A DNA stretch of 58,558 nucleotides from Girardia tigrina (taxonomy: Eukaryota). Location: positions 1 to 58,558 of the forward strand of contig MQRK01241546.1 in NCBI GenBank assembly GCA_001938485.1, in the 5' to 3' direction. Of the stretch, positions 19,366 to 54,748 are shown in pieces (the stretch's first letter is position 1; each line of letters starts with the position of its first letter). Under the pieces are notes generated by a model. That model made no database searches. It worked only from the letters and a program-made list of their open reading frames with translations, and was not told the origin of the DNA. The translations under genes and the position numbers were made by a program.

Positions 19366-19399
<34 letters not shown>

Positions 19400-19931
19400 C
19401 AAAAATATAATTTGATTAAAGCTTTCTTTATATAATTATTGGACATGTTTCGATGTTTACATACATCATCATCAGCAATTTTCGGATATTTAGTATATGA
19501 ATATTGAATTGTGTGAATAATACAATTTTAACAGATATATTTACTTTAAAGGTAACGAATAAATTAATTATTATTATTTATCAAAGTATTATTGGGTAAT
19601 AATGACAAAAATATTTTAATTAAAAATTTTAAGTATTGAAATAACCTTACTTTGCCCATTCTGAATGTTAATTGATGGGTTGTAGTGTCTTATTAGTAGA
19701 GATTCACAAAACTGTCGTTCGTAATGTGAATCAAATCCCTTTGTAGAACAGAAAACTCATCTTTTGAAATGGATGAGTTTCTATCCTTACAACATAACCA
19801 ATGATCAAGAAACTTACTCGATCGACTCATTTGCGAGTGCTCACTAATCCGGGTTTTGAGATGACGATTTGTCTCTCCGATGTACGAGTTTTGACACCCG
19901 TGACAATTAAATTTATATACCAGATTAGCTT
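19400..19931 (-). mobile_element. Penelope-like element 3' end (GIY-YIG and pLTR) abutting (TA)n, cut by an assembly gap
   Basis: ANLVYKFNCHGCQNSYIGETNRHLKTRISEH, with a hammerhead motif downstream. Confidence 0.85.
19438..19479 (-). ncRNA. Minimal type-I hammerhead ribozyme
   Basis: Minus strand AUUG CUGAUGA U GAUGU..ACAUC GAAAC AU GUC CAAU: both core boxes, stem II, GUC cleavage triplet and 4-bp stem I. Confidence 0.85.
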
Positions 19932-20739
19932 NNNNNNNNNNNNNNNNNNNNNNNNNNNNNNNNNNNNNNNNNNNNNNNNNNNNNNNNNNNNNNNNNNNNN
20001 NNNNNNNNNNNNNNNNNNNNNNNNNNNNNNNNNNNNNNNNNNNNNNNNNNNNNNNNNNNNNNNNNNNNNNNNNNNNNNNNNNNNNNNNNNNNNNNNNNNN
20101 NNNNNNNNNNNNNNNNNNNNNNNNNNNNNNNNNNNNNNNNNNNNNNNNNNNNNNNNNNNNNNNNNNNNNNNNNNNNNNNNNNNNNNNNNNNNNNNNNNNN
20201 NNNNNNNNNNNNNNNNNNNNNNNNNNNNNNNNNNNNNNNNNNNNNNNNNNNNNNNNNNNNNNNNNNNNNNNNNNNNNNNNNNNNNNNNNNNNNNNNNNNN
20301 NNNNNNNNNNNNNNNNNNNNNNNNNNNNNNNNNNNNNNNNNNNNNNNNNNNNNNNNNNNNNNNNNNNNNNNNNNNNNNNNNNNNNNNNNNNNNNNNNNNN
20401 NNNATATATATATATATATATATATATATTGATTACTGTCGTCATCAATCTGGGTCAAACATACACTCATTCATTTCACCATACACATTTCACCATATTT
20501 CGGTTGTGACCTATTACATAACAATACAAAGATCACACCAAAAACATTCCATACATAAATTACGCATCATACATTTATTAGTTTTGATAATAATTCTCCT
20601 CACATCCCCCTCGGTTTAAAAAGTCGTATCCATTCAACGTTTCTTACAATGGTACGCCCCCCATCAAATCTAATAATATAGCTTTTATCATGTCTCGCTG
20701 CAAATTTTCAATCATTAGAAGTTATTAATGATGATAAAA

Positions 20740-21260
20740 ACTTTATATTTTCGACAAAGTTGGCTTTGCTGTTGTTACTCGTTCAAATCGTAATAGAAGT
20801 AGACGAGGAGAACCCACCTTTTTGACTGTTCCGGCTGCTAGAAGTCGTAATATTTTAGTACTCGCGTCAATGAACAAATATGGAAAGATTTATAATGTCA
20901 TACATGAAGGAGCAGTAAATAGCGAAAACTTTAAACAATGCCTTTAAGAAATTAAAGTGCTGCATTATCAAGGGTATTGAAAACCAAATGTTTATCATGG
21001 ATAATGCTCGAATTCATCATTATTGCGGCTTAATGAATGATGAAGAAATTCTGCAAATGCCACAAACGTATTTCCACCTCATTCCCCCTTTCTTAACTCT
21101 TTTGAGAACATATTTTCTATATGGAAGAATAACGTTATTAGAGGTTGTGCTCGAAATGAAGCAGAACTTCGAAGATTAATAGTTGATAAGTTCAATGATA
21201 TATCAACCGAAAATCGCGGCGCATTCTACCGAAAGAGGCTTGAATATCTTCAAAACTGAG
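20740..21260 (+). mobile_element. Tc1/IS630-like transposase remnant
   Basis: FIMDNARIHH and frameshifted PHSPFLNSFENIFSIWK. Confidence 0.75.
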
Positions 21261-21487
21261 ATGGGACAAGTAATAAACGATTAAGTTTATTTATATGTAA
21301 AGTGTTTACATATAAAAAATCAATTTAAAAATGTAGTTCCTTGTTTTTTTCACAATGTTTTTGTATTTATATATATGTTATGAATAATACATTTTGTGTT
21401 TAAATTTGTTATTATATTGCCTGCAAAAATTATGAAATAGCCCGAAAAACCCTATATTATTTGAAAACTATTGTAAAGTTGTATTAA

Positions 21488-22051
21488 GGTTAAGGGAAAA
21501 AACATCACAGGAAGAAACATCGCGAGAATAAACAATTGTGCTAATATTTAACTATAATAATTTTTACTAAAATTGAGATAAAATTTAATTAAAAAATCTG
21601 AAAAAAATACAAAAAAATTAAAAAAAACTAAAAGATTCAAAATTACAAAAAATATAAAAATTATAATATTAATCAGTAATAAATAATTAAAATTACTAAA
21701 ATTTTATTACAATTTAAAATTATTTAAGTCTTTAGAGTATAATGTGATATATTATTAAAATTATTTTGGTATTATTTACCAACCTTTTAATTAAATATTT
21801 TATTTTTTTAAATTAATCATTAAAATTAAAATATTATTTATCATAATTAAATTGATAAAAATGAATTTTTGATTGCTGAAAAATGACAAATTTGGATTTA
21901 TAAATTACTAATAATTTAGGATAGGGTTACGATTAGGTTAATTTAAAATATTTTTAAAATTTTTGCGACAAAATTTACAATATTTTTTTGGCGATGTTTT
22001 TTTCATCACAATTTCAGCAAGAGATTTCCTGTGATGTTTCTTCCGGATCCC
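21488..22051. mobile_element. Mutator-type MITE in GOT1 intron 3
   Basis: TIR GG.....GGAA.AAACATCACAGGAA at both ends, with an exact 9-bp TSD TTGTATTAA (21479-21487 and 22052-22060). Confidence 0.8.
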
Positions 22052-22210
22052 TTGTATTAAACAAATAAATTAAAAAAAATTTAACAAAAAGAAAGAGAAA
22101 TCATTTGCAAATGAGAATATGAATAAAAAAGAAATTTGAAAGAAAAAATTCTCTGAATGCGGAACTATTGTCGAAAACCGAATGAAATATTGATATTGAT
22201 CTCATATCAG

Positions 22211-22252
22211 ATTGTGGTGAAGCTGGGCGGTGGCGGTCATTCGATGGTCTGA
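22211..22252 (+). CDS. GOLT1B: Vesicle transport protein GOT1B, last exon
   Basis: atcag|IVVKLGGGGHSMV*; GOT1 proteins end in ..MV. Total CDS is 420 nt = 139 aa. Confidence 0.8.
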   Translation: MVVKLGGGGHSMV

Positions 22253-24262
22253 CAGAAGATATATCGCACTATCCGAACAAATATTATTTTGTATATATGT
22301 TTAGCTTGTGATCGAAATTAAAAAAAATATTTGTCTTCGAAAATTCATTAATTTTGCAATACATTGTTTTATTGATTTGTTGTTTTGAAACCAGTTTTTT
22401 TCGTTATTATAGATTTAGAAATGTAATGTGGTACTGATAAATTGGGTGAATAATCACCGGTGTGTCGAGTGGCTCTCGGTTTGCATCGTTATGTAATATT
22501 TGTAATGGTGCGTCGATCGCGCTAGTGTGTGCTTGTTTCTGAATTAATGGAAAAAAATTAGAAGAAAAATCTTTGGTATTTAATACTACACTTTAGGCTT
22601 AATTAATACAAATTCATTTGTGTTTTATTAATAAACATGTAAATAAATAAAAATAACAATGGATTTATGGTGTTTTCAGCAATAACTGAAATACAAAAAG
22701 ATCAGCAATATTTTCAGAGAAACTCAAATTATGAGAATACGCGTGTTCTGTAGATTTGCAAGTATAGTAATGTAGAAATTATTAAAAGTTATGTTTGCTG
22801 AGTTGTTAGCAAGAATGAATGATTTGGCACTATCAAGAAGATAATCAGTAAAATTTTAAACAATATAAATCTAAAATTAATTTAATATTTAAACATATGG
22901 TTAATTTTTAAATTTTATATCAATGGTTAAAGTCGCAAATTTATAATATTAAAATTTGTAATAAATAACATATAAATAGTTATAAAGTAATTAAAATTTA
23001 TATATAGCAATTTTTTATCTAGTTTGTGCAAAATAAGAAAAACATCGTTCTTCATAAATTTGTTTGAAAAATAGTTAATTGTTATATTAATAAATATTTT
23101 GTATTATGAACTATATCGTTGATCACGAACCTAACACAGGGTATCACCTCTTTATAAAACAAATACATTTAAATTATAAAAATTCAAGATATGCGTGCAA
23201 ATTTAACAAAATTTTACTTAAATTTGCCTCAAGATAGCCGATTAAAAAAATAAAGAAACAATATAAGAAAAACTTGGGACCAGAAAATGTCTTCAAGTTA
23301 ACCGTGTATTCGAGATAATCGAGTTCGAGATATCCGAGTTCCACTGTATTTAAATTCTAAATTTTTAAAAGTAACAATTAACATTTATATTAATGAAGTT
23401 TCTTGTTTTTTTTCACAATGTTTTTGTATTTATATATATATATTTTATGATAAATAATATTTTAATTTTAATGATTAATTTAAAAAAATAAAATATTTAA
23501 ATAAAAGGTTGGTAAATAATGCCAAAATAATTTTAATGATATATCACATTATACTCTAAAGACTTAAATAATTTTAAATTGTAATAACATTTTAGTAATT
23601 TTAATTATTTATTACTGATTAATATTATAATTTTTATATTTTTTGTAATTTTGAATCTTTTAGTTTTTTTTTGAATTTTTAATATTTTTTTCAGATTTTT
23701 AATTAAATATTATCTCAATTTTAGCAAAAATTATTATAGTTAAATATTACCACAATTGTTTTTTCTCGCGATGTTTTTTCCCTTAACCTTAATACAACTT
23801 TACAATAGTTATAAAATAATATAGGGGTTTTCGGGCTCTTTCATAATTTTTGCAGGCAATATAATAACAAATTTAAATACAAATGTATTATTCAAAAAAT
23901 ATATCAATACAAAAACATTATGAAAAAAACAAGAAACTATATTAATATAAACGTTAATTGTTTATATAGGTTTTACATTTGAATTTTCCAAAATTCTAAT
24001 TTTACATTCTTAAGTTTTAAAGATGTCCATTCGACGTTTTATAAAATTTCCTTTAATGATTTATGTTTTGTATTTTACAATTAGAACTTTGTCTTACTTT
24101 AAAAACATTTAAAAATTTTCCAAAAAGTACATTTTCATTAACAAGTTTTAATTGTAATATTCAAAAATTTATGAACTAAAAATAATAACAATAATAACGT
24201 ATAAACATTGTCTATATTACATTTAATTGTTGATTTTTTTATGTTTGTTTGATTTTATTTAA

Positions 24263-26533
24263 TCTTCATCCGTCCTTCAAATCGACTGTACACTAAAGTC
24301 CCTCGGGTCTTTTTCGACTCAGGTAGAAATTTAAAAGAAACAAAATGCAAATAATTAAATTAATTTTATTATTAACGGTAATGTTGACTGTTTAGGAATA
24401 ATAAAGAGCGATTTATGTGTTAATTATTTATTTATTACATTTATGACATACATTATAGGAATGAGACTTACAAATAAATCTTTTACAATATTTACATTCT
24501 AAAGCATATTTATTGTCCGATTTTGGGCAAATGTGACATCTACCTCTTTTGTCCACGTGTTCTTGCTGTTGGTACTTCTAAAGGAGATGTAGTTGTGCAT
24601 TTTTGTTCTAATATAAATTGTTGGCAATATGCCGCTCGTGGCAAAAGAGTCCGTCTCGTCATGTGTTCTTTTATCAATAATTCACCCACAGTTTCAATGA
24701 AAATTCTTCTTCGATAATTTTTTTTTATATTCCAATCTGGACAAACACATGTAAATAAAATCAATGCATTTGATATAGATATATTTAATATATTTGCAAA
24801 AACAGTAATTGGTCATCTATTTGTTTTCCTTCGAGTACTGTAATTGACTATCAATTTGTCTAAGGTGTCAACTCCTCCTTTCGTTGCATTATAATATAAT
24901 ATAATGTTAGGTTTATTTTCAGAACCACCTGACAATTCTTTCGTTTTGTGAAGAGTGCTCTGAAGAACAACACATTTATTTTTTTGGAATGTATGACACT
25001 AAAGTTGTGTCCTTTGTAAGTGCATATTTTGAAGTAAAAACTGCTTTACCTTTTACTTCGAGCAATACACGTGGAATTGTTGTTTTATTTTCTCTAATAG
25101 TGCCAATCATAGTATTTTTTTGGTAAGTAACATTTAACTTAATTCATAAGAAGTGAAAAAGTTGTCAACTGTTACATTTCTCTCTTCAAGTTGTTGACAC
25201 AAATCTAAAACCACTCGCCTTCCTTGATTCCTTTCAGGTGCTTCGCCAGCTACTTTTCCAGTGGATATATCTATATTCCAAACATAACTATTTTTGCTAT
25301 CGCACAGCACCCAAAATTTAATCCCATATTTAGTCAGCTTTTTTGGAATATATTGCCGAAACGGACATTTTCCGCAGTATGGAACCAATTGCTCATCGAT
25401 TGTGACATTTTCGCCCGGATTATAAAGATGTGGTAATGTTTCAACCCATTTATTCCAAAGTTCTCGGATCGGGGCTAATTTATCAGTATTTCTTCTAGTA
25501 GCTCGTGTACTACGATCATCAAATCGAATGACTCTCGATATAATTTTGAATCGTTTTAGTGACATAGTAGCCCTGAATATATGTCGTCCCTTTGTTTCGT
25601 GCCATAAATTTTCCTAAGCCTCGTTATTCGATTTATATACACCTGCTAACAACAAAAGTTCAATATATGCATCCAATTTGACAATATAGATATTTTTCCA
25701 ATGCTCTTTATATACACGATTTTCTTCAAAATTGGTATTTTGAATAATAATATTTTTTATAGAATTTGTAAACAATAATTCAAATGCAGAGAGTTCTGTT
25801 GATATGCGAGTAACAGCATATCTTGTGATTCCAGGGGTAGTTCTAATTACGTTTGATGATAATTGACGGCCATGTTGAATAAAGGGTTCTGATCGCCATT
25901 CAATACTTTTATCCTTAGAAAGATATGCTATAGATCTAGGAGGTGCATCATCTATCTCACTATCAGAAGTTTCAATCAATTCTTCAATATGATCTGATGT
26001 CTCCGAGCAGCTATCATTTTCCGATGAAAATTCAAGTAAATTATCCTCTTCATATTCAATTCGTCTTGACATGATGATAAATCTACACAAAAAAGTAAGT
26101 AAGGGTAATAAAAAATGAAAACGTTTTTTCTTTCAAATAAGCACCTACCAAGGTTATAACGTATGTAGTTCTTTGTAATTCAATAAAAAATCAATAAAAA
26201 TGAAAAGTAATGAAACGGTTAGCACAAATATATGCACACTCGTACGCGAAGGAGTACTTCTTAGAAGGCGATAAACAATACACATCTGTTTGCACTGGGA
26301 ATTTCAATAATTTGTCCAAAAATAGACTTGGGTCATATAAGACCCGAGGGACTGAAGTGTTACTTTTTTTATAAGAGATAATCCAGGTAACATTTTTTTC
26401 TTTTTCAAAATTAGTTTATTATATCAACAAAATCAAAGTCATGAAATTGCAGATATGAAGTATTAATATTTTAAGATATATTTGCGAAAAAAAATCACTT
26501 CAGGTCGAAAAAGACCAGAGGGACGGATGAAGC
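24263..26533 (-). mobile_element. piggyBac transposon, full length, transposase disrupted (PGBD4-like)
   Basis: TTAA at 24259-62 and 26534-37, TIR CTTCATCCGTCC and subterminal repeats. Transposase motifs TIDEQL, KYGIKFW, VTVDNFFTS, GGVDTLD and a Cys-rich tail, with stops and frameshifts. Confidence 0.93.
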
Positions 26534-26671
26534 TTAACATACCTAGATTCTCAAAAAACTACAATATTAATTTTACTTTTATTAAATATTTACGATATTA
26601 CCTAAAATAGACTTATATCGTAAAGTAAATACATTCAAAACTTTCCACTTTTAAAATATCTTTCATATTAA

Positions 26672-28522
26672 CCCTTACCCCCATTTGACTTTTTTTTACT
26701 TTTTATATTATATTAAAACTCTCAAAAAATTTTTATTAGCAATTTAATTGATCTTCTTAATTTTAGTAATTTTATTTTTTTCAAACGTTACATATTTAAT
26801 TATATAAAAAATTTTTTCGTACATATTTAATATAACTTTCTTTCAAAAATTTTCCTAACATTTTTAATTCCTAACAGTAGTTTTGGATTATAATTGGCTT
26901 GCCCTCTTGACCAACAACCTCTCGTGAAAAATGACTACTGCTGAGGAGTATCACTGCTTTATTTTTCTTAGGCACATAGGAACACAAAGAAATTTAATTT
27001 TTGTTTGCAAATCGAAATTCCATTGAAAGTGGAGGTCGCCGATTGTTTTTTCGCATGGACTGCGGAACTTTCTTCAATGATGGTGAACTGTGCCCACTTC
27101 AAGTAAGGTACTGGCAGGTGCGTGGCTAGTGAAGAAATTATCAGTGGTGATATTTCTCCCCGAGTTACGAAATGGTTTAGCAAGCTTAACGACAATATCA
27201 TGAGCCAGACCTTTCTGAGGTTTATTACCGGTTCTTGCACAATAAATTATGGCATTCAACGCATATCCTGTTCGTGCTTCGCAAATCCAAAATTTTTTCA
27301 AGCCGTATTTCCGGGGCTTTGATGGCATGTAAGTTTTTCCTGGAATTTCGCCGCTATAACCAACAAGCTGTTCGTCCACAGCCGGATCTGTTCCAGGAAT
27401 ATAAAACTTTCGAAGCTTGGGTACAGACATGTCCCAAACATTTCGGATTGCAGCAAGCTTCTCTGTTTTCTTCCGCTCTTCTCTAGAAGGAAATTGTCGA
27501 ATCGAAGACATTTGAGAAGGAATTCAACCCTATGACGAGACGTGTAGGCTCTATAAAATGGTTTGCTGTCATCTTCCTTGTAAAGGTCAGACAGAGCTGT
27601 CAGGTTGTCTCTATCGACTTCTGCACGAATTATGAATCCCAGAAAAGCATTCAGCTCAGAAAATGAACAATTTCCATATGTCGTACTGCTGCGGAGTTTC
27701 CCGTCCGAGTGCCTTTGCTTTCCTAATAGTGCAAGGAAGAATGACGCGTCTTATTTCTTCTGTAAACAATTTATCAAATATTGACAACTCGTCCATAACA
27801 TCTGTCAAAGTTCGCTGACGCGCATTAACGATATTCCTTCGATGTCGAACATTATGTACAGGTTCATGGCTCCACTTCACTCCATTACAGATCTCGTCAT
27901 CATCACGAGACCCTTCTTCAGAATCGCTATCTTCAACAAAAACGTTCATGTCACCTTCGTCATCATTTGCCAGCATGGATTGTGGCTCGTCATTTACTTC
28001 GGTTTCCATTTCGCAGACTAGTGGCACTTCCATATCTTCTTCATCACTAATGACTGTATTTCCCAAAGGCTGCCGAAGTGGAGGGGGGTTATATATTATT
28101 CCTCGCTCTCAAGTGGACCTTCGTGAGAAATATCATACAAGCGAGCAACAGATAAAAATGTGGATGACAAAGCTTCGAAAATATTGCGCGACATCTGAAG
28201 AAAAAAGAAAAGTTATTACAATCGGAAAAATAGGAATAAGGCATGCAACAACATAACACAAAACGTTTTCTATGATAAGAAAATAATTACCTGGAAATAT
28301 ACTTAATTAATAAAAATCAATTAATTATTAAAAAATAAGTCAGTCATTATAATCTGATAAGTATTAACATTGAAAAACATAAATAGGTAATAATAATACT
28401 ATAACATTATTATAATAATCGTTATTTGTAACCGTAGTTGCGTTTCCTCGCCCAAAGTATATTGTCTGCAAAATGTAGTCTCGTGGGGATTGAGGATGAA
28501 AATTTCAACGGTATGATAAGGG
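26672..28522 (-). mobile_element. Second piggyBac transposon, different family, 3'-deleted transposase
   Basis: TTAA|CCCTTA ... TAAGGG|TTAA. Motifs AVDEQLV, YMPSKPRKYGLK and ITTDNFFTS, acidic N-terminus. Confidence 0.88.
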
Positions 28523-29799
28523 TTAACATACAAATTCTGAAACTTTCATATTACTCTTGATAGTTAATGTATGTAACTTCATATAATCTAAGCATTTTAG
28601 CCAACGATATCAAGTCAATTTTCAAATATTATTGTTGAGTACCACAACAATTATGTTTATGAAAATCATAAAAAATATATGTAAAAAATTTTAATTCGCT
28701 ATTTATTTGTATAAAGTAATTTTATGATGAAAAATTTATTAAAAATAATTGTTAAGATTTGTTTGAATAGATTGTACAAAATCACAAATAAAATTTTTTT
28801 TCGGAATTTCGATTTTTGATTTGTTTAGCCATGATTGAGTTGAATTTTCATAGTTGAATTTTCTCCATTTCATATAACTGGTTAAAATTCATAAATTTAA
28901 AAATTCATATTTAAATAACCTGGCGCACTTAAAATTTTTGAATATTTAAAATAAGCTAATATCAAAATTAAAAGTTCTTGAAAAGAATTATAATTAAAAC
29001 ATCTCTAATTAATTTTAAAAAGTAATTCTCAAAAATTAATTATGAATTATATTTTCTAAAAATGTCATTTTTAAAACGGATAATTTTTTAATTACTTAAA
29101 CTATTTGAAATGTTGTAAATTTTAAACTATTTGTAAATAATTTATTTTTTAATTATTAATAATTAATTTGAAGTTTTAAAATTAGTATTATTTATATACC
29201 TAAATTTAAAAATCTCATTTCCATTTTAAAATAATTTATTCTTGATACATTTCAATATTTTGCGTCGTTTTAAGAATTCATTAGACTTATATAATTTTAC
29301 TTAAAAGGAAAGTATCAAAATATTTTATTATAGATTTTTATTAATTCGCCTTAAATTCAAAAGCAATATAATCTAATAACCACCACAATGTTAACATTCA
29401 ATCAAAGATTTCGCAAATATTTGATAAAGTGATAAATCTCTACATTTTTTATCGGTAATCATCAGCAATTTCAAAATCATATATATTGATAAAAAACTAT
29501 TCACTATTTGAAAATATTTCAATATTAAAAAATAATAAAATTCTTTTCAATATTTCAAAAACAAAATAAAAACCAATATTATTAAATCAATTTTGAAAAA
29601 AATAAAATCCAAACAAAATATTATATTTCAAATAATTTCTCAACAAAAATTACTAATCACCGAACATCAAAGGTCATATCGAAGAAATTTGTTTTACTAA
29701 ACCAATACAAATATTTCATCGCGATTTTAAGTTCTATGGTTGAATAAACAAAATTTTCGTTAATCAAAATTCGCATTTGAAAAAAACAAACTGATCCCA

Positions 29800-31886
29800 A
29801 TGCAATCGTATCAAAATCCACATTTACAATACCAACTGAAATGCTCCAATAATTACACTCAACAGAAATCAACCGCCAATTCGAATAACAATAATAATTA
29901 TCCCTCCAATCAATTCCCATCGATCAACATGAACACAAAACCTGCTGGTCCATATGGTCCCTATCTGCACCAGCCGCACTCATATCAACACAATGTCGTG
30001 CCGCAATCCCTGATCCACCAAACATATCACAACAACAATAATAATAACATCAATATCGACCAGCACAATCTCTACTCAAAGTCCTCCAACAATAAATCTC
30101 CGCCAATCGAATCGATCGACAAGAATCACTTCCTCAAGAACCAATTGATTCAATTGCGGGCGCAAATAAACACTTACAAATTGCTCGCTAAATCTCAGCC
30201 GATTCCTCAATCGATCATCAGTGCGGCAAATGGATCGATCTTTAAGCCGCTCATCACCGAGCCGACCAAAGACACTCGCGCCGCTTCAATCAAATCGAAC
30301 AATCGACCGAATAATCGCCACAGCGACACTAACGACAACAATAACGACAATATCAACAGTGATAATCGATCGGGCGCGATTCTATCGACCATATCGACCC
30401 GCGTGAGTCAAGCGAGTCTCGACAAGAGCCTGGACCCGGTGGAATTGCTGCGCGACCGCGAGACGCGAATACAAACGCGCATCGAGCAGAGAATCTCGGA
30501 ATTGTCGATGAGTCACGCCAATATTTCCTCTTTCTCTCCGCTGTCGCAGCAACAGCAACATCAACAACAGCAGCAGTTGTCGTCGTCGTCTAATTCGTCA
30601 TCGAATTCGTCGTCGTCGTCGTTGTCGCAGACGCAAACCGCACACAAATTGAAAATCCTAATCGAATTGAAAGCGCTCAAATTGTTGTCGCTGCAGAAAT
30701 CTCTCCGGCACGACATCGTCACGAGTATGAGACGCGATTGTCGTCTCGAGAGTGCACTGAACATCAAATACTACCGGAAACCGAAACGGCAAACGCTGAA
30801 GGAATCGCGCTACACGGAGAAACTCGAGAAGAAGTTGAAATACGACCAGGAGAAACGAAAGCGCCAGAAGCACCAGGAGTTTCTGAACGCGGTCATTTTC
30901 CACTGGAAGGAATTCAAAGAATTTCATAGGAATATCGATTTTAAAATCATCAAATTGAACAAATCGATCTTGAATTATTTCACCAACAGCGAGCGGTACA
31001 AGCGCAAGGAACAGGAGCGGATCGAGCGCGAGCGAATGCGACGGCTGATGGCCGAGGACGAGGAAGGTTACCGGAAGTTGATCGATGAGAAGAAGGACAT
31101 GAGACTGCACTACTTGCTGTCGCAGACCGACGAGTTCATCGCCGGACTGACGAAGCTCGTCAAAGACCACAAACGGGATCAGATCTTGAAAAAGAAAGCC
31201 GAGTTGGAGTTGGAGCGAGAGAAACGGAAAATCGAGTGTCTGTCGAGATCGATTGGACGAAACTGTCACGGGTTGTTGTTGTCGGCGGACGAGTTGCAAA
31301 AAGCGGCCGGGTTTTTGTTGGGTGGCAGTTTTCAATTGGCCGTACAAAAGTTGCCGAGTGAAGTGAGAATCGATGTGGTGAATCGAAATACGGGTCAGAA
31401 ATTGATGGATTCGAGTGGCCCGTTGATTGGAGAACTGGAGCAATGGTTGGCGGATAATCGCGACTGGGAGGTTCTGGCGACTGACGAGTCATGCGGAGGC
31501 CTGGGCGGGATAGCAGAGATGGATTCGGACGCGCTCGAGATCGATTTGGCCGATGAAGAGCTGAATAACAGCGACGACTGTGAGCCGATTCACATCGGGG
31601 CGGAGGACGACGAGTACAACAAGAACCACACGCAGACATACTACACGCTGGCGCACTCGGTACAGGAGGAAATTCGGGAGCAGTCGAGTTTGCTCGTGAA
31701 CGGACAGTTGAAAGAGTATCAGATCAAGGGACTGGAGTGGCTGGTGTCGCTGTACAATAACAATCTCAATGGGATTCTCGCTGACGAAATGGGTCTAGGA
31801 AAGACGATTCAAACAATCGGCCTCATCACGTATTTGATGGAGAAGAAGCGCGTCAATGGACCGTTTCTCATTATCGTTCCGTTATC
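29800..31886 (+). CDS. SMARCA4: Brahma / SMARCA2-4 SWI/SNF ATPase, large 5' coding exon (QLQ, HSA, BRK, ATPase motif I)
   Basis: [15 protein letters not shown] (QLQ), [23 protein letters not shown] (HSA), [15 protein letters not shown] (BRK) and [17 protein letters not shown]. Donor TC|gttagt, phase 2. Confidence 0.95.
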
Positions 31887-31919
31887 GTTAGTGGATTCGA
31901 TTTGGGTGTTCTGTTAAAC

Positions 31920-32560
31920 TTTATATTTTATTATTACTATTTCTTACTATTGTAATTAATTATTATTATCAATATTTATTATTATTATTAATTATTTATT
32001 AATTATTAATAAATAATTATAATTAATTTATTATTATTATAAATTATTTTTTGTTTCTAGTATTTATAATTTTTTATTATTATTAATTTTAATAATTTAA
32101 TATTATTTTTAATAATTATTATTTAATATTATTATTTATTATTCATAATAATAATTTTTATTTACTTTTCTTATTATATTTATTATTATTATTTTTAATT
32201 AATTATATTGATATTATTATTATTTTTTACGATTATAATTAATTGCTATTATCAACATTTATTATTATTAGTATTATTGATTATAACTTGTTTTTCTATT
32301 ACTATTAATTTTTATTAATTTTATTATTAATTATATAAATTATTTTTTTTAATTTAATCGATAATTATCATAAATAATTTATTATTTATTATGCACAATA
32401 ATAATAAGAAATTTTATTTACTATTCTTATTTATTTTTGTTATTATGAATTATTGAAATTAATTTTTATGATTAATTATATTAATTATTTATTATTATTT
32501 ATTTATATTTTTAATATTAAATAAAATAAGTAATAAAAATATAAGTACTATACATCATAA
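31920..32560. repeat. Extreme AT low-complexity (ATT)n-like tract at the start of Brahma intron 1
   Basis: For example, 31981-32040 contains no G or C. Confidence 0.9.
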
Positions 32561-33040: not shown

Positions 33041-33701
33041 ATAAAAACAAGTTAATAAAAAGTCTAGTGACAATTTAAGCGCAATTTCCTTATGTTATTC
33101 GTTGCCAAATTATTAAAACGTTTATATCAGTATTTGACTATGATTAATTTTTTGTGACCGAACGAAAGGATATTTTTGAAAACTTTCTTCGGCAATATTG
33201 TTCTAATTTTCGTAAATTGCGCTAAAAACCAACTTCATCAAGTAAACAATGTCCATATAAAATTAATTAATTAATCCATATGAAATTAATAGTTGTCTAT
33301 TAATTATTAAAACGTTTATATCAGTATTTGAATATGATTAATTTTTTGTGACCGAACGAAAGGATATTTTTGAAAACTTTCTTCGGCAATATTGTTCTAA
33401 ATTATTGCAGGAATCGATTGGTAAATGTTTCAAGTCGCTAAGTGGTCTGGTTGCCGAGATATAGGCCAAAAACTGCATTTTTTCGAGGTTTTTTGGCTTT
33501 TCCGGGAAATCAATAAAGGAATTCCGGGAATTTTTTGGCCCACAATTATCCTCCGAACTTGCTTAACATATTTGCTTTTGGAACTAGCCCTCGATATTGC
33601 TTCGTTGAAGAGGAGATACGACTTAAAGCTGCGGACACACATCCATCCACACAGAAATAACCAATTAATAATCGCAATTGTCAGTATGGAAATTGCGCTA
33701 A
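33041..33701. mobile_element. Non-autonomous Helentron/DINE-1-like element, copy 2
   Basis: Same element as 3913-4571. 12-bp subTIR AGCGCAATTTCC/GGAAATTGCGCT and an internal ~100-bp duplication. Confidence 0.6.
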
Positions 33702-34063
33702 TAAAAAAAAATGTTTACAGTCATAACTGAGGCGAGCAAAAGTCAATAAAGTCAAAATGGTATCATGAGGTAGAAATAATTTGAGAAGCACCAAAGTACT
33801 CATAAATATATAGGTTAATAGGTCAAAAAATATCAAAAAATTCTTAAGGTCAAAAAATTTCAAAACAAGGAAAAGTAAGTCAAAATTAGAAAAATTAGGT
33901 CAAAATAAGAAAATATTTTGTCAAAAATGTCAAAAAAAGTTTAATTAAGTCAAAAATGACAATTAAAAAAGTAATAATTTTAAAAAATTTAATTTCTTTA
34001 AATCAAATATGGTAATTTAGTCATTAAACAAAAATAACACCATTTTAATTTTAAATTTTTATT

Positions 34064-34104
34064 GGAAAACATGTTTCGCCACTTTTGTGGCATCTTCAGT
34101 TCGG
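34064..34104 (-). ncRNA. Minimal type-I hammerhead ribozyme
   Basis: Minus strand GAA CUGAAGA U GCCAC AAAA GUGGC GAAAC AU GUU UUC. Confidence 0.8.
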
Positions 34105-34132
34105 TATTTAATTAGAAAGTTATTGTTTATAT

Positions 34133-34532
34133 CAGCGACGTAGCCAGGATTGCAGAGGGGGGGGGGTGGAAAAAAATTCCTGAAAGATCTAGCAATCTTA
34201 AATATAAACTTGGTGGCAAAAATAACAAGAATGAAATAATATTTATTTATTTTTATTTCTTTATAATTACATGTCCAGCTGACGCTTTCCTTTGCGGAAC
34301 TCGTGAATAAAATCTTCAAACGATACTTCTATGTCACGATGAATGCTCAAAAACATTAATCCATTGAGTCTTTCCTCTCCTGTCGTATTTCTGTCATCGG
34401 TTTTGAGTTGTTTCATCTTACTGAATGATCGTTCGATATCAGCAGTCGTTACAGGAATCACATTGTAAATTTTCAGTAATTTAATCCAGGGGGGTGGAAA
34501 TCCACCCAATCACCCCCCTGGCTACGCGCCTG
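34133..34532 (-). mobile_element. 400-bp internally deleted hAT element retaining the dimerisation domain
   Basis: TIRs CAGCGACGTAGCCAGG / CCTGGCTACGCGCCTG and exact 8-bp TSD GTTTATAT. Encodes IPVTTADIERSFSKMKQLKT..RLNGLMFLSIHRD. Confidence 0.9.
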
Positions 34533-36222
34533 GTTTATATAGAAAGATGACCATTACGTCACAGTGTGTTACGTCAAAATACTCTAATATGATTGGACGA
34601 ATCACTTTACACATTTAAACTAGGTTTACAAAACTTTATCAAGAGTGCTTCAGTAATTGTCCTTTCATAATTGTGATCAAAGTTACTAATCGAACCCCGA
34701 AAATCATTATCAAATACCCTCCTTTGAGTTCCATGACATTTCACTATGTGGTCCAAAATTGAGCTTTTTCTATTTGATTGGGTATGTTCTGCAATTCAGG
34801 GGTCTACAGAAAACCAACGGACACTGGTCTTTACAGTACTCCGAGTAGTTTCTGTGACCCAAAATATAATAGAAGTATGATTAAGGGTCTAGTGCATAGA
34901 GTTTGGAGTTTAACTTCTTCTTTTGAAATTTTTGATAAAGAAATTGATACTCTCTATAATAGACTTAGTATTAATGGTTATAATAAGAAATATTTAAATA
35001 ACATCATAACATGGTATTATTTTTGTTTAATTTTAAAAAGTATCAAAAATTTAGAAAACATTGTTTTGTAATATTTTTTTTTAAAAAGTTTTTTTTTAAT
35101 TTTTAAATTGTTCTAGTTTATTTTATTTTTTTCTTCATTCTCATATTGAATATTTCTTAAAATATTCAATTATTTTTGTTCAATTACATGAACAAGTTGT
35201 GAAAACATTGTCTTCAGAACAATGATAATAAACAAAGAAATACAATTAAGATAAACTAGATCAATTTAAAATTGTGTAATGCAAGTGAAGACAAAATATG
35301 CAGCCGTAGACAACTTGATTGCCACTGCCAAAGCCCTCACAGTAAAGAACCGTGAACGGCGAGACTTTATTAAAATTATTGGACAATCATTTCAGCCGGT
35401 TGTAACGAGATTGACCGCATGGTTGCATGTAGCTTACTACTACGTGGAGCATTTACCAACAGTTTGACAGATTGTTAATTCTACTGACTGCAAAGAGCTC
35501 CTTCTTGCTCACACCCAAGAGGCGGTCGCCAATTCTACTCTTTCTAAAGGTTTTATCAACATTTTACAATATAAGTCACTTGTACACTTTGTAGAATGTT
35601 TTGAGCCTCCAGACTATCATATACGGTAGGTAGTTAAAAACCTACAAATATTTCATGTTGGGCGGATCCATGTTCCATTAGAAAATACTAGGATAAAAGT
35701 TTGGACAGTAGTGAAATTATGGACTAAATGAAGATGAGGAGAAACGATTTGTCCCCTCACTTTTATGCTTTACTGCAAGAAGCGCAGTAAACAAGTGCTG
35801 CGGTTGAAATGAGTTTTTCAATTCTGAAAAGAATTTTGCGACACGATCGCAACTTTGATGGGGGAAATTTGCGATATTATGCATTGCAGAATTTTAATTC
35901 CACTGCTTGAACATTTTTTACTCTATATGTTATTAATAAAATTTTGATATACTTGTTCTCTTAACTAATTTTTTATGATCAAAAAATTCAAAATCTAGGT
36001 AAAATAAAGTCAAAAGTTTAATTTTTTAGGTCAAAAAAATACCCGCCCTAGTCATAACAATTGATATCTTTTAGTAAAAGTTTTGAAATAAGAATTTTAA
36101 AATAAATAATAAACGGATAACTTAATAATATTTTAAGAAATAATTTTGTAAATAAAAGACTTATGGTAAATTTAAATTAATTAGTTATGGGGTAAAATTT
36201 TATAAAAATTTTTAGTTACAAT

Positions 36223-41300: not shown

Positions 41301-41593
41301 ATATCGATATCAGAATTCATGACACAAGATTTTTAATAATAATAAAAGAAAATAATAACTTCTTTTCATAATTTAACAATCATATCGGCGTAATTATTTA
41401 AAAGAATTTTAATTTTTAAATGAAAATAACTAAACAATGGTCGGCGCTGTTTCCATTTATATAAACAAATAAGACTTGCAGTCTTTAAGTCAGTTTTGTT
41501 TTTTTCACCCCAAGAATGACAAAAATACGATTATTGTGCACATACATTAAATTCTGATTGCTTTTATTTTTAATAAATTTTATTTCTCATCAG

Positions 41594-41771
41594 AACTATG
41601 TCTAATTGGGCTTTGGAATTTGAGAAATGGGCTCCAAGTGTAATTAAAGTCCTTTATAAAGGTTCTCCAATCACTCGGAAAACAATTCAAAGTCAACTGA
41701 AAAATGGCAACTTTAATGTTTTATTAACAACGTATGAATATATAATCAAAGACAAATGCAGCCTGTCGAAA
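41594..41771 (+). CDS. SMARCA4: Brahma / SMARCA2-4 exon
   Basis: cag|(S)[36 protein letters not shown]|gtaatt; phase compatible on both sides. Confidence 0.93.
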
Positions 41772-42055
41772 GTAATTAATTGGCATTATTATGATTTATT
41801 AATTTTCAAATTTAAATATTATTTAATTATACTTTCATGATAATAATAGAAAACTAACATTTTTTTAATATAATATTTTCTGAATGTGAGAAAAAATTTC
41901 TGTCAGTTATGCCATGTAATTTCCATAATGCTTTTATTAAATTAGACTATATTTTTAATTACTTTATCATTCATTCTATTCCGTCCTAAAACGAATTAAA
42001 AATTTTTCAAAATTAATAAAGATGGATTCTTATTATTAATTCATATTAATTAGAA

Positions 42056-43890: not shown

Positions 43891-44399
43891 GAGTTATTTT
43901 TATTTTTTGAATAAATTTATTTGTTTACAAACTTTACAACACTTAATAAACTGGTCATGTAATTGGCCAGTTCATCATCGAAACATAGAGTCTCGATGAT
44001 GAACATACAGATTGTAGGCAGTTGTGTATGCTTTAGAATCGGAAACCTTTATACGGGTCACATGTCTGACATACCTGAAACTTGATTTTGAAAGCATTTA
44101 TTGTTATTAAGATTAGAATCTAACAACTTAATTTACAATAATTCTCAATAATAAATTCAATAGTTGATCTCGATATTTATTACTTTTTATATCTTGTTAT
44201 TTCTTTTAATTCAAATAAATCTATTATCTTAAATCAATATCTTGAAAGTCCGGGAAAGTCTTTTTGGATGTTTATTGTAACGCTAAATAATAGATAGTAA
44301 CACGTTCGTACTATTTATATTTAAAAATTTCTCATCTTAATTTTTTACTTATTTTAAATTCGTTCCAATAGTGAATTTAAACAAAAGAACTAAATCAAT

Positions 44400-44730
44400 T
44401 TATTACACACCCTACCATCAAGGCACACAGACATGTTGTCCGAGTAAGGTGGAATTTTGTCCTCATTGCGAAGTTGAGAACTTTCTTATACAAAATCATT
44501 GAGTCAAATTGGTTGAAGGGACCCTCACATTCGATTAACCACCTTTTTTCTTCAATTCGTTAAACTAGGCTTTTGACTTCGTCCGCGGGGTACTTGACTG
44601 ATGCATACCTCCAGTGCCATGTCACCGACCAGTAGTGCCCATCGAAATTTCGCCTGATTATTCTCGTACTTGCTTTCCATGGCTCTGGACGTTCTTGCAT
44701 ATTTTATCTTATAAAAGCCCAAGTCACTCA

Positions 44731-44765
<35 letters not shown>

Positions 44766-44805
44766 ACTAACGCTCATATTATCTACTTACAATTGTAAGT
44801 AGATA
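44400..44805. mobile_element. Probable non-autonomous rolling-circle (HINE-like) element with (CTGC)8 and terminal palindrome
   Basis: GC-richer block, (CTGC)n at 44731-44764, and perfect 26-bp palindrome TATCTACTTACAATTGTAAGTAGATA at 44780-44805. Confidence 0.5.
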
Positions 44806-44989
44806 TTTATATTAATAATNNNNNNNNNNNNNNNNNNNNNNNNNNNNNNNNNNNNNNNNNNNNNNNNNNNNNNNNNNNNNNNNNNNNNNNNNNNNNNNNN
44901 TACTTGATATATGAAAATTTGATATATGAAAACAAATTATAAAAAGTGATATAATTGTGTCTTCTTTGTTTTAATGCATCTGTTCCACA

Positions 44990-47880: not shown

Positions 47881-48879
47881 TAAATTTAGAAAATAATATG
47901 ACTAAATGGAAATAATTTTTTAATTAAACGTTTTGAATTTTCACACAATTTCTGATTATTTAAATAACTGTTTTTTAGTAGTTATATATATATAATAAGA
48001 GTAATAATTTATTTAAATGTTGATCATTAAAATATCTTATAAATTATATACTTATAAATCTTACAATACTCACAAAGGTTTGAAATAATAAATGATTCAA
48101 AGCATCATTTGTATTTAATAATTTATGTCTAAATATATTTGTTTATTAATAAATAATAGAATATTAGATGATTTAATGGGTCATTAAATCCTCATTGTAA
48201 TTCACTAAACAATCAACATAAAAATAAAAACAATACATGATCTGCCTATTCCAAAAGTCAGAAAAAATAACTTTTTGAGAAAGAGGAAAAGTGGAAAATT
48301 ATCTCTAATATTACACATGATTAACAAACGGATATCATTTTTTTGTGTCATTGTTACGAAACAATAAATTGTAGATGATAATCGTATCCTTCAGGTGTAT
48401 ATAAAATAAAAGAGAACTATTTATCCACTTCCTTGCTATCGATCTTTTTATAAATATGAGCAAAATTTTACGCTACTGAAAAAGTATATTAAAAAATAAT
48501 AATTTTATTATACAAATAAAATATAGATAAAATATAAGAATTGTAATGCAATTATTTTTCAAGAAAGTCAGTGTTTTTAAAATAAAAAAAGCATGTCAAA
48601 AGGTCAACTGGATTCAAGTCAGCTTTACAAATAATTATTCTAAAAATTACACTGAAAAATTATTATAAAATCAAAGTACTACAAAATATATACTATAATA
48701 ATGAAAAGTAAAAAGCTTTATTATGACTAAATTCGATCAAAGTAAAGTAAAATTACTAGTGAACCTTATATTTCATGTTCCCTTCTCAGAAACAGTTTTG
48801 AAAGTAAAAATAATAAAAAATATATATTTCAGATTATTGATAAAACGAAATCCGGATGATAATTTTCTTTTAAAAACAA

Positions 48880-49770
48880 CACTCATCCGTTTAAAATATA
48901 TTTATAGACAATATATTTCGACGGATCTACCGTCATCTTCAGGTCACTAATTAATAATCAATTCACCTGTATATAAATACAAAAATGATGATTATGTAAT
49001 CGATTGCATGAAATCATGTTAATCAAAAATTCTCAATAAGCTGGTTGAAACTGCCGATTGAACATTGATTTTAGGGCAACTTGACTTAATTAACAATGCT
49101 TCACACGACACTCTCCCAATAACTGTCAAAATGCTTACACAGAATTTTGAAATTATCAAAATTAACATCACATTTACATTTTTTCCTATGTTCTGCAATA
49201 TTACTATTACTCTCTTTACGACCATGTTCTTGAATTCGTTTACAGAGATAACGGACAGTCTCTCCAATGTATTTGGCATCGCACCATTACATTTATATTC
49301 ATAAACAATATCAGAACAAAGTGTTAAAGGTGTAATAGATTTATTACTGAACATATTTTGAATTTTATTAGATTGTGATATAATTTTTAAATTTAATTCA
49401 TTGTTAGTTGCTTTTAACAATGCATTTTTAAAGTTTTTAAATCCTTCAGAATAAGGTACATTTAAACAATATTTAGGTATATTATTAATATCTAATCATC
49501 CTTCGATTTCTTTCTTAGATCCATCAGGAGAAGCCAAACTCTGATTTTTCGAAAAATCTTTCAATCGTATTTTATCTACTACTTCCTTTATTAATTTTTC
49601 TAGAAAAGATTTAGAATAACCATTCTGATTTAACAAAGAACTTAGTTTATTAACACTTTCTACAGATTTAACAAAAGTGGAAGACAACGACCAGGAGCCA
49701 TAAATTAAACCTTTAATCATGTTTCTTTTATACTTAAGTTCACAAAATACTTATTCATAATTATACTTAA
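48880..49770 (-). mobile_element. Penelope-like element 3' part (RT thumb, GIY-YIG, pLTR)
   Basis: MIKGLIYGSWSLSSTF..NGYSK and SDIVYEYKCN/AKYIGET, with a hammerhead downstream. Confidence 0.85.
48907..48945 (-). ncRNA. Minimal type-I hammerhead ribozyme
   Basis: Minus strand GAC CUGAAGA U GACGG UAGAU CCGUC GAAAU AU AUU GUC; stem I GAC/GUC. Confidence 0.8.
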
Positions 49771-51522
49771 GTGTCAGTTATTCCTGAAAATTTCCACATC
49801 AGAAAAAATAGCCTCACTATGTTGTATGCCATATACCCTTACAAAAGGATAAAATATTATACAAATATTTAGTAATTGTTAAGTATTAATAATGTCTGGC
49901 CGTTTTTGCTCGTATAATTGGGATGCAAGCCCATTATGAATGGGTTTAATTGTCGCTTATGAATTAAAATAATTGTTCCACTTGGGATTGTTTAGTTACC
50001 CAAACAGATATAACAAATTTTGCAACCGAACTTGTTACCTATATATCTTTAATTACAGTAATTTATTTATTTATTTTTATTTATTTATTTTTGATAGCAT
50101 TATGAATCTTAATTTTTATTATAACATATTAATTAAAAGTAACATTTTAATTAAAATGTCGATTGATCGAAGAAAAAATTATTTTTCATAAAAACATAAT
50201 ATATAATATCATTTACTTTTAAAATAAAAAATTGGAAATTATTTTGTCTTTTTATAGAAAAGGAATTCGTAAAGAAAAAACTGAGTGGCTTACTACGAAT
50301 TAAGCATTTGGCCAATTAACTCAGTTTTGTACAATATTTCATCTATGAATATTTTTTGGATATAAAAAAAGAAAATTATTTTAAGAAATTAAAGAAGTAT
50401 TCAATGAATATTTATTTCTTTATGAATTTTGTATTAAATATGCTATTGAAAAGCTTTTCTTGAAATTTATAGTCTCAACAAAATATGTATTTTGCGAGAC
50501 TTATTCTTAATTTTTTAAATATTTTCTAATTTTTCAAAAGGTGTGTGAGAAATATTTTGAATGTTGTTTATTGTATGTTGTTTAGTATGTTGTTTAGGAT
50601 TGTGTTTCTCAGACTCAGGTCTTGCCTTTTTATAGAAAAGAAATTCGTAAAGAAAAAAACTGAGGGGCTTACTTCGAATTTTAATTTACTACGATCGATA
50701 TTTTAAATATTTTAAAACATCGAATTAATTATTCAATTTTAAAATTTAAATATCTAACTTTATAATTAAATTAATATATCATAAATAATATATATAAAAT
50801 ATTTTTTGAAATAATTAAAATTATTTTTGTAATTTTGTATTATAAATTATTTTGAAATCAAATTGTAAATAAATTGTAATTTAAATTTGTTTAAATAATA
50901 ATGCGTTTAGAAATAGAATTAAATTTATCAATTAAGAACGATGACTAGTTACGAAAGTTTTATGGATAATTGTCCTAGTGGCAATTCAAGTTGTGATACA
51001 AATAAATTTAATAAAAATCCAATTAGTGTTCTTAATAAGGTGCATACAGAAAAATGACAAATTATTCAAATAATCAAAAACCATTTCAATCTAAAACATT
51101 TAATAGTATAAAAGTTTTCTTTTTTCGCCATATATTTTGGTGGATTTATTATCATCTTCATACAAAATTTTCAACAATTGTAATACCATATGTATATAAA
51201 TGGCGATTATGCAATGTCAGAGCTAATTAAATACTTTCAACAGAAGAAAGGCTTATTTGAACATTAATTGATGGAATAAGTGATTTGAACAATAATGCCC
51301 GACAGGAGACCCTCTCCTTATAATTTTTAAAATTACTGTACATTAATCACTGTTTTTAAATTTGAAATTAATAATTTTTTCAGATCCAAATGGTATTTTT
51401 TATTATTTTCTAGTTTTTTTTTTCATTTTTATGAAATCAAAATATTAATTTTAGTTTTTAAATTTTATATTTTTAACTTTTCTAATTTTATTCATAAATA
51501 ATATTGTTTAAATGTATCTCAG

Positions 51523-51765
51523 CTCAAATGGAAATATATGATTATCGACGAGGGTCACCGGATGAAGAATCATCACTGCAAGCTTACTCAAATCCTCAAT
51601 ACATATTATTTCGCTCCATACCGTTTATTACTTACTGGTACTCCATTGCAAAATAAATTACCCGAATTATGGGCTTTATTAAATTTTCTATTACCGGACA
51701 TTTTTCAAAGTGTAAATACTTTTGAACAATGGTTTAATGCTCCTTTTGCTATTACTGGAGAAAAG
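51523..51765 (+). CDS. SMARCA4: Brahma / SMARCA2-4 exon (DEGH Walker [11 protein letters not shown])
   Basis: cag|[32 protein letters not shown]|gt. Confidence 0.95.
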
Positions 51766-51806
51766 GTCCATTAAAATTTTTCCATTTCCATTTAAAAAAT
51801 GTTTAG

Positions 51807-52028
51807 GTTGAGTTAAATCAAGAAGAAACTTTACTCATTATTAGACGCTTACACAAAGTTCTCCGGCCATTTTTACTGCGCAGACTGAAAAAAGAAGTCG
51901 AAAGTCAATTACCAGACAAGGTGGAGTATGTCATCAAATGCGAAATGTCTGCTTTACAGAGAACGTTATACAATCACATGCAGTCTAAAGGTGTCATTTT
52001 AACTGATGGATCTGAAAAAGACAAAAAA
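51807..52028 (+). CDS. SMARCA4: Brahma / SMARCA2-4 exon
   Basis: Follows a 41-bp intron. [53 protein letters not shown]|gt. Confidence 0.93.
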
Positions 52029-53329
52029 GTTTATATATATTTTTTATTTTTATTAAAAATTATTCTCGAACTCTATCTTATTTTTTATAGTTCTTGTAAT
52101 TGTAATTTGGATTTTTTTCGATAAATTTGAAGATTTATTATTTGAAGGATAAGTAAATATTAATTTTTTATTTAAAATTCAGAATCAAACATTCATTAAA
52201 ATTTATAATATTTTTAAATACAATTTTCATAAAATCTTTATTATTTAACACTGTTTTTAGCACCAGAGTCAAAAAATCCTTTAAAAATTTTGACTAAAAT
52301 CATATTCTAAGTTAAAGTGGTTAGTTCAATAATCTCTAACATTCGTTATTAAAAGGAAGCACTGAATTGTTCTAATTATTTTTCTTAAAAAATATAATAA
52401 ATCATTAAAGAAAAAAGTGCTTGTTTACAACATCACTGTTTCTACTTACTGTGTGTAACTGTTCATAAAAGGAACCTTGTTGAATATCAGAGCATTGTAA
52501 AATTTTATAACTTGACAAAATATTACGGCTTACATTCAACAGTATATATATAATCCAATGTCCCTGAAAACCAACAATATATTATTGGATAAGTCAGCTC
52601 AAAAACAGTAAAGAAAGTTTTGAAGACGAAAATTTATATCAGTTTAAGGTCAGATGAAATTCGCGATGATAAATTAGTGCTTTGTGAAAACATTATCAGA
52701 CATGATTAAAGATTAAATTGAAGAATTTCAACAACATGCTGAAGATCAGGATCTGTTTTTGCTTTGATAAAATTTAGGTATACAAAGCTTTGCTACAGGT
52801 GTACACCAAAGCTTATCACGAGAAATGGAAGACTCTGTTAGTCGCTGTGCAAGGAAACATTTAATTATTTCATCAATGTGATGTGAATGTCCTCAGTAAT
52901 GTAACTACTGAATATGAATCTGATCATTAAAAATGGATACCTGGCAGTCAGTGGGAGTCTGCTGAATTGTGTCAATTTGAGGAAAAGCCTTCCTTAGAAA
53001 TGATAAATCAAACAACCAAACATCCATAATGTTTTGTGTAGAAAAGAAGTGGTAATACTTAATCACATACAAATACAAAACCTTTTGGTGCATCATATTT
53101 TAGTCTGCTAGACAGTGAATGCTAATAAAAAAATTAAGTTTCCTAATAAATCTCTATGGTTTTGATTGACAATTCATTAATACATAAAACAAGAATTTCT
53201 AAAGAAATTACAAAAATGTGGCTTTACTGATTGTGTTACTCTCCATATAGTCCCGATGTATGATCAAGCTAATAGTTTTTTTCTAGAGCTTAACTACAAT
53301 CGATTATTGTACATTAGTCTGAGAAGATT

Positions 53330-54595
53330 AATCTGTCATTTTTTCAAGAAGTACTTCTGAAGAATTGAGAATATCAAGGACTTTCTCCTTGATGACATCA
53401 ACTGAATGAAAGTGGACACCTTTCAAATGTTTCTTTAGGTGTTTAAACAACGCAAAATCACTTGAGGCTAGTCAGGGCTATTGGGGGCTGGGAAACCAAC
53501 TGAAAGCCACAGTCATCCACAGCAATCAAGGTTGCTCGCGAAGTGTGAATGGGTGCATTGTCTTGAAGGAGCAACAATGGGATCCCTCTTGGCTTCCTAC
53601 GAGACTTTCTCACATCGCGACGTAATTCAACATAATACTCACTGTTAGAATCTGTGGGAACATTACTCGGAGAAGAACAAATATCCATAACTAAATTATA
53701 TTTATTAATGACACTTAATTATCGGATATTGAAAAATATTTGGAATAATTGATTGATTGCGTTGATCTTCTAATAATTCCAATTTCCACTCTGATTTTCA
53801 ATTCCCGGAAAAATTCTGCCAATTATTAAAACAGATTTTTTTTATTTTATTTACATTTAACTTATATTCTATTTATTTAATTATTTCTTAAAAAATTTGA
53901 GGAACTAAATTACTAAAGTTTTATTTTTTTGTTAAACCGGTATTTTATAAAATTATATTTAATTAACTAATTTAACTTAATTTCGATTGCCTATTTCAAA
54001 AATTTTCCGTTTACTATTAATTCCTAACAATCACTATTCATTGTCAGTCTTTTCTCAATTAATTAATTTTAATAATGCCATGGTAATCCCAGAACACAGT
54101 CAACATTGCTGCTCGCTGGGTCGAGGTGCCGCTTCGAAGTTTTCGGGGAGCACTTTCATAGGGAGAAACACCACTCAGAAGATTGACGCTTGCTCTCATG
54201 CACCTACAAGCTCACCGGGCTTTCATCTTGTGTAACGATGTAGTTGATGAAGCGATCACCATTAGTGCGAAGCAACTGCAAATTGGTAGTGCAACACTGC
54301 AAACGTTTGTCGCACATTTCACCGCATAGGAATCGGGGAACAAAACGTGAACACAGTTTGCGAACTCCAAATGATTGCAGAATATCATATTTAGAATGGT
54401 AGCTGATGGATAGATGCTGTGGCAAGTTCACGGATGCTTATTCGTCTCTCTTCCGATACGATCTTCATGCAGAAATAACTTTTCCCGGGTAAAATTTCAC
54501 AGGGTCGTCCTGATCTCTCAGCATCAAAAATGGATTATCGGCCATGTTTAAAGTCTCTGATCCAATTATACACTGTTGCACGTGATGGGGTATTG
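53330..54595 (-). mobile_element. mariner-family transposase remnant split by an AT-rich insertion (~53690-54075)
   Basis: RSGRP, LCSRFVPRFL, IVTQDES, LLQDNAPIH and a degenerate SP.LA.SD. Confidence 0.8.
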
Positions 54596-54647
54596 TAATT
54601 ACAAGTCATTTATATGGCACATTGACTTGTAATTTGAAATTTACTTC

Positions 54648-54684
54648 ACAACTGATGATGCCGTAATGGCGAAACATGTTTTAA
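54648..54684 (+). ncRNA. Minimal type-I hammerhead ribozyme in a solo PLE pLTR fragment next to (TA)n
   Basis: CUGAUGA U GCCG UAA UGGC GAAAC AU GUU. The downstream sequence resembles that of the 34064 copy. Confidence 0.72.
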
Positions 54685-54716
54685 GAAATAAAAAACTTTT
54701 AAAATGGCGTTTGTTA

Positions 54717-54748
<32 letters not shown>

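Follow-up and report, generated by a model that had tools for sequence, protein, structure and literature searches.

The window analyzed here is the whole 58,558 bp contig MQRK01241546.1 of the flatworm Girardia tigrina (assembly GCA_001938485.1). Among named matches, a dynein exon of this assembly is closest to flatworm sequences (66-68% identity), and another match reaches 91%. It contains the GOT1 and Brahma/SMARCA genes, and four minimal hammerhead ribozyme motifs are located within the introns of these two genes. We refer to the motifs as copies 1 to 4, representing families F1 to F4 respectively (Table 1). Very probably, they are the hammerhead-bearing tails of four separate insertions of Penelope-like elements (PLEs), likely copied from the 3' end, and as lone copies they are predicted to be nearly inert.

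The four copies have a common architecture in which CUGA(U/A)GA is followed by one additional U, a stem II whose first pair is G-C, GAAA, and a 6-nt palindrome beginning at A15.1, with the core C3 positions at 19475(-), 34099(-), 48942(-), and 54652(+) for copies 1 to 4. The stem II sequences are GAUGU/ACAUC, GCCAC/GUGGC, GACGG/CCGUC, and GCC(G)/(U)GGC in the same order, and both the stem II pairing and the tiny palindromes described in the original prediction are seen in all four, the palindrome being ACAUGU in copies 1, 2, and 4 and AUAUAU in copy 3. The bare core pattern matches the window 11 times compared with 4.4 expected, a count reached in none of 100 shuffles, and a structural descriptor demanding stem II and the palindrome returns exactly copies 1 to 4 in the window and nothing in 100 block shuffles. 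Each motif was thus located where it had been predicted, and the strand assignment also stands, with three copies antisense and one sense relative to the host genes.

The intronic locations are supported by transcript contigs for copy 1 and by flanking exons for copies 2 to 4. The GOT1 gene codes for the Golgi Got1/Sft2 protein (PF04178) and not for the transaminase. Transcript-like contigs come from four runs whose RNA nature is a guess. In all four, 15962 is connected with 18483 and 18574 with 18622, and in three of them the contigs exit at 18882, their loose end aligning at 22211; copy 1 therefore lies in the GOT1 intron 18883-22210, the third intron seen. Acceptor-site prediction alone singled out no exon as the last one of GOT1, and it was the transcript contigs that did so. 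Brahma exons are present on both sides of copies 2, 3, and 4, and the gene likely continues past the window.

The sequences next to the motifs point to their origin. Copies 1 to 3 are positioned directly 3' of PLE endonuclease or reverse transcriptase (RT) remnants, and on the same strand as the endonuclease, as determined by tblastn and Pfam. The endonuclease remnant of copy 1 matches a PLE endonuclease (tblastn, E=4e-13) and its element is 91-93% identical to other genomic copies, and the 0.9 kb element of copy 3 is 90-93% identical to two longer copies (L098 and L106), both with an RVT_1 domain. The pseudo-long terminal repeat (pLTR) of copy 2 is interrupted by a 400-bp hAT-type insertion, and a member of the F4 family to which copy 4 belongs (L120) has RT and endonuclease upstream of its hammerhead. 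A C-terminal GIY-YIG endonuclease stands behind the RT in L106, L098, L120, and L160, and in the window at 49022-49747. Along their length, the elements carrying copies 1, 3, and 4 share 91-94% identity with other copies. A 5' truncation with inverted parts is observed for copies 2 and 4, and eight of the 19 gene-anchored motifs described below form four inverted pairs. The proposed PLE origin is therefore borne out by the adjacent remnants together with the genome-wide families.

Table 1. Hammerhead motifs, PLE remnants, and host genes in the window. Stem I values are contiguous base pairs.
Feature	Coordinates	Strand	Description
Hammerhead copy 1 (F1)	19438-19479	-	Stem I 4 bp, GUC site; antisense, GOT1 intron 3
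Hammerhead copy 2 (F2)	34065-34102	-	Stem I 3 bp, GUU site; antisense, Brahma intron 1
Hammerhead copy 3 (F3)	48907-48945	-	Stem I 3 bp, AUU site; antisense, Brahma intron 2
Hammerhead copy 4 (F4)	54650-54682	+	Stem I 2 bp, GUU site; sense, Brahma intron 4
5'-truncated PLE of copy 1	19353-19931	-	GIY-YIG remnant 19619-19929, pLTR, (TA)n tail; abuts N gap
PLE remnant of copy 2	33985-35010	-	Endonuclease C-terminal part 34577-34795 (-); inverted RT C-terminal piece 34796-35008 (+)
hAT-type insertion, 400 bp	34133-34532	-	Inside copy 2 PLE; 8-bp target duplication, terminal inverted repeats; Dimer_Tnp_hAT E=4e-6
5'-truncated PLE of copy 3	48836-49747	-	RT C-terminal end, GIY-YIG endonuclease, pLTR; Pfam GIY-YIG E=1e-4
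PLE tail of copy 4	54595-54763	+	About 170 nt; about 30-nt 5' inversion, pLTR end, (TA)n
Further PLE endonuclease remnant	51125-51346	-	Brahma intron 2; decayed hammerhead core read by eye
Older PLE remnant (RT end and endonuclease)	7544-8491	-	Destroyed hammerhead near 7550-7572, core read by eye
GOT1 (Golgi Got1/Sft2)	15832-22250	+	Exons ..15962, 18483-18574, 18622-18882, 22211..
Brahma/SMARCA	29764-57793	+	Exons ..31886, 41594-41771, 51523-51765, 51807-52028, 57500-57793

Two hammerhead patterns match the assembly 10,157 and 3,810 times, about 14,000 matches in total in 1.43 Gb that include redundant haplotigs, and reversed controls give none. We aligned 16 copies of about eleven sequence types, all with an invariant core, and 93.7% of the 175 cells pair, 59 of them with two-sided changes, compared with 61.9% and 18.9 in shuffled alignments; none of 500 shuffles equals the observed values, and slid registers pair in only 23-47%. 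Two-sided changes are present at nine of the 11 pairs, including all four pairs of stem I, for which pairing across the 16 copies is 82.5%. The copies were picked using a descriptor that requires stems II and III and does not require stem I. All 16 have a U inserted between positions 9 and 10.1, which the descriptor does not demand, and the G10.1-C11.1 pair, which it does; the CUGANGA...GAAA core with an NUH site is likewise present, although the copies were selected for the core.

The families differ in their ends. A (TA)5 repeat lies no more than 120 nt downstream in 24 of 36 F1 copies and 19 of 28 F4 copies, compared with 51 of 5,000 background windows, and (TA)n-ended copies are rare in F3 (3/65) and F5 (1/12), which points to different target preferences among co-resident PLE families. 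In Craig et al. 2021 (PMC8557442) such a bias is tied to clades with a linker zinc finger, and by eye no such linker is seen in F3, the one family inspected for it. The F1 remnant at 19346-19930 has a summed contig depth of 16,000-198,000 in one run, compared with 1,669 for the spliced GOT1 contig, and the higher depth of the F1 PLE is repeated in the other three runs, although paralogs are summed and the runs are guessed to be RNA; this suggests that F1 RNA is abundant.

The original prediction had further proposed that sense copies cut the host pre-mRNA and are purged, such that the survivors are mostly antisense or weakened. The window has three antisense copies to one sense copy, although at least three of four antisense is expected by chance with P=0.31. 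For a broader count we used contigs picked by dynein heavy-chain and myosin-head matches, and not by hammerheads, giving a gene-anchored sample of 106 stretches and 981 kb (890 kb without N), all of which was scanned, with the gene strand taken from the dynein and myosin matches and from tblastn. Of its 19 intact hammerheads, 11 are in sense and 8 in antisense orientation (two-sided P=0.65; 95% confidence interval for the sense share, 0.33-0.80). Confirmed exons or domain matches flank 15 of the 19 (9 sense, 6 antisense), the other four being placed by architecture only, and when the eight motifs in the four inverted pairs are set aside the remaining eleven are 7 sense and 4 antisense. Under a 25% sense share, as in the window, the probabilities are 0.002 (11:8), 0.004 (9:6), and 0.008 (7:4). 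A strong antisense bias is rejected, and a mild one, with a sense share of about 0.35-0.45, is still compatible. Adding L144, which was fetched for its hammerhead and stands outside the gene-anchored count, would make that count 11:9. Within strict gene spans totaling 699 kb, 21 PLE open reading frame (ORF) remnants are in sense and 14 in antisense orientation. Control transposons (LTR, 2 sense and 5 antisense; mariner, 12 and 18) are too few to interpret.

A separate set of 60 loci was anchored on hammerheads and kept outside the statistics; 142 of its 244 candidate ORFs were submitted to Pfam, and the rest are mostly transposon-like by eye. Gene context is firm for four of these loci, with sense motifs in L101, L111, and L146 and an antisense motif in L144; L146 additionally carries two antisense motifs of another family. 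The three intact sense hammerheads are in introns of Na/K-ATPase, hormone-sensitive lipase, and SRPRB genes. L118 was dropped from this set, and L142 turned out to sit behind a stop codon, with its intact F1 hammerhead (L142:4447-5017) lying antisense about 280 nt past the stop of a torsin-like gene, as read by eye. A further sample anchored on Pkinase was set aside, its top matches being mostly single open frames, and was kept solely to train the coding score.

Monomer folds of copies 1 to 4 do not form helix III, and the self-duplex energies of the palindromes are -4.6 kcal/mol for ACAUGU and -0.8 kcal/mol for AUAUAU. Unconstrained cofolding gives a full active dimer for none of the four, with the palindromes paired in copies 2 to 4 and another fold for copy 1, and copy 4, the sole sense copy, folds the weakest (z=-0.2). 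Cleavage by a lone copy likely requires a partner, the two folding into an active dimer in which their palindromes would pair with each other and so complete helix III. In Cervera and De la Peña 2014 (PMC4209133) monomer cleavage is undetectable and dimer cleavage low, and PLE motifs are mostly single truncated copies, with opposite-strand pairs also described; a review (PMC6765202) agrees on the single truncated copies and on monomer and dimer cleavage. In Frangieh et al. 2024 (PMC11167929), reverse transcription begins inside RNA beyond the hammerhead, insertion in vitro is independent of hammerhead cleavage, and RNA-seq reads show no ends at the cut site. PMC8557442 reports inverted 5'-truncated PLE copies and microsatellite targeting, and calls the hammerhead function unclear.

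These observations argue strongly for PLE tails. Reverse transcription would be primed near the pLTR end, and because copying would start there the hammerhead end would survive truncation. The structure would be selected in active elements, and not in the GOT1 and Brahma introns, and a lone intronic copy would rarely cut pre-mRNA, in which case the near-random intron orientation in our sample is what is expected. Several points weigh against this interpretation. No hammerhead family of Rfam matches anything in the whole window at E<=1, or in shorter segments spanning copies 1 and 3 at E<=10, such that the covariance-model check proposed with the original prediction is negative, although Rfam covariance models presumably miss motifs that lack helix III. 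No coding remnant accompanies the tail of copy 4, only three distinct F2 copies are present in the fetched loci, and in the 16-copy alignment the selection of the copies leaves just two independent lines of evidence, the pairing of stem I and the variety among pair types. The gene-anchored strand sample is also small, from two gene families, and with possible overlap of paralogs or haplotigs.

Purging of sense copies has in its favor, besides the strand split in the window, that the 2-bp stem I of copy 4 is shorter than in 28 of 29 fetched F4 copies, which have at least 3 bp (about 20 of the 29 were retrieved with a pattern fixing the 3' arm), and that retrozymes are depleted from Xenopus introns according to section 13 of a preprint (10.64898/2026.07.22.740005). 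The gene-anchored counts (11:8, 9:6, and 7:4) run the other way, however, and intact sense copies are present in the Na/K-ATPase, lipase, and SRPRB introns. The related claim that the sense copy has the weakest stem I holds for copy 4, which falls below its family, but this is a single case; stem I length does not differ between sense and antisense copies in the gene-anchored sample (P=0.97), in which some sense copies have a stem I of 4-5 bp, one of these with a GUC site. Moreover, AAUAAA follows directly after copies 2 and 4 and would confound any bias; an antisense bias of human intronic transposons is ascribed to termination signals in PMC3517506, and therefore a bias here would not point to the ribozyme. 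We regard purging as unlikely. Also improbable, and slightly more so, is a tolerated, genome-wide layer of intron cleavage, in which a cross-family dimer, formed by two sense copies within the same long intron or by one copy and abundant PLE RNA in trans, could cleave the pre-mRNA. This presupposes that the genome carries thousands of intact sense-strand intronic hammerheads, and the ACAUGU palindrome is indeed common to several families (copies 1, 2, and 4).

Amniotes have conserved intronic hammerheads (Rfam HH9/HH10) that are sense-strand, full-helix, few-copy, and conserved across species, and at least one copy in the window could similarly have been co-opted to regulate GOT1 or Brahma RNA processing. 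As in amniotes, the host genes are conserved and the motifs intronic, and hammerheads are somewhat more frequent in the window than expected from the gene-anchored sample (4 compared with 1.2, P=0.036), although the window was itself chosen for hammerheads. Unlike HH9/HH10, however, the window motifs are high-copy, minimal, on either strand, and without an Rfam match; three are antisense, the sole sense copy folds the weakest, and the lengthwise identity of the elements of copies 1, 3, and 4 to other copies also argues against co-option, which we consider very improbable. There is equally little to recommend the motifs being monomers of non-autonomous non-LTR retrozymes that spread as small circular RNAs. 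In favor of this, copy 4 is a short piece without coding sequence, the retrozyme preprint cited above proposes that retrozymes derive from PLEs, and the window motifs share with retrozymes a dimer-type hammerhead and a palindromic helix III. Retrozymes, though, are non-coding tandem monomers, whereas the window motifs are the ends of coding elements: copies 1 to 3 adjoin coding remnants, no tandem array of hammerhead units is among the repeats listed for the window, and the family of copy 4 shows a 5' inversion and is found behind RT and endonuclease in L120. Matches in L120, L133, and L134 point to scattered F4 5' ends that reach the ORF and to the lack of a fixed monomer length.

The PLE tails correspond to the minimal hammerheads previously described in metazoan PLE pLTRs (PMC4209133). 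That study lists about 2,000 motifs for Schistosoma and 9,000 for Xenopus, compared with approximately 14,000 matches here in a redundant assembly; helix II has 3-6 bp, shorter than the 7-8 bp of Schistosoma, and the 6-nt palindrome is kept, as in the Drosophila and rotifer variants. Like the endonuclease-containing (EN+) Penelope/Poseidon-type PLEs of PMC8557442 and PMC11167929, the elements have RT followed by a C-terminal GIY-YIG domain with CCHH-like residues, inverted 5'-truncated parts, and a short tail past the hammerhead. The window thus adds a PLE-hammerhead-rich flatworm genome to the kind described in 2014, and what is new is negative, in that sense is as common as antisense among 19 genic motifs, consistent with published reports of scarcely any cleavage by lone minimal hammerheads. 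We found no strand test of PLE hammerheads in the literature searched, with most subscription journals outside the reach of the search, nor, using a term search, in the main text of the retrozyme preprint. With its many covarying families, this is a good genome for testing the role of PLE hammerheads, which the accessible parts of the cited papers leave open.

Rfam matches to mir-3613, to group-II D1D4-2 (under the gathering score), and to snoRNAs in the window were taken as chance. The first Brahma exon seen (29764-31886) is more than 2 kb long with about 48% GC and runs of Asn, Gln, and Ser, compared with about 30-35% GC in later exons. The arms of an inverted repeat (21289-21846 and 23445-23984; 337 nt, 93%) are located either side of the last GOT1 exon at 22211. 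Two USP7 C-terminal pieces (1365-2069 and 5362-5919, plus strand) have an LTR-retrotransposon remnant between them, and a repeat of about 600 bp is present at 3913-4539 and 33041-33665, 29 kb apart and with at most 96-97% identity, with a related piece at 58505-58554. Between GOT1 and Brahma, the 24431-28108 region contains two piggyBac-like transposase remnants, named by eye.

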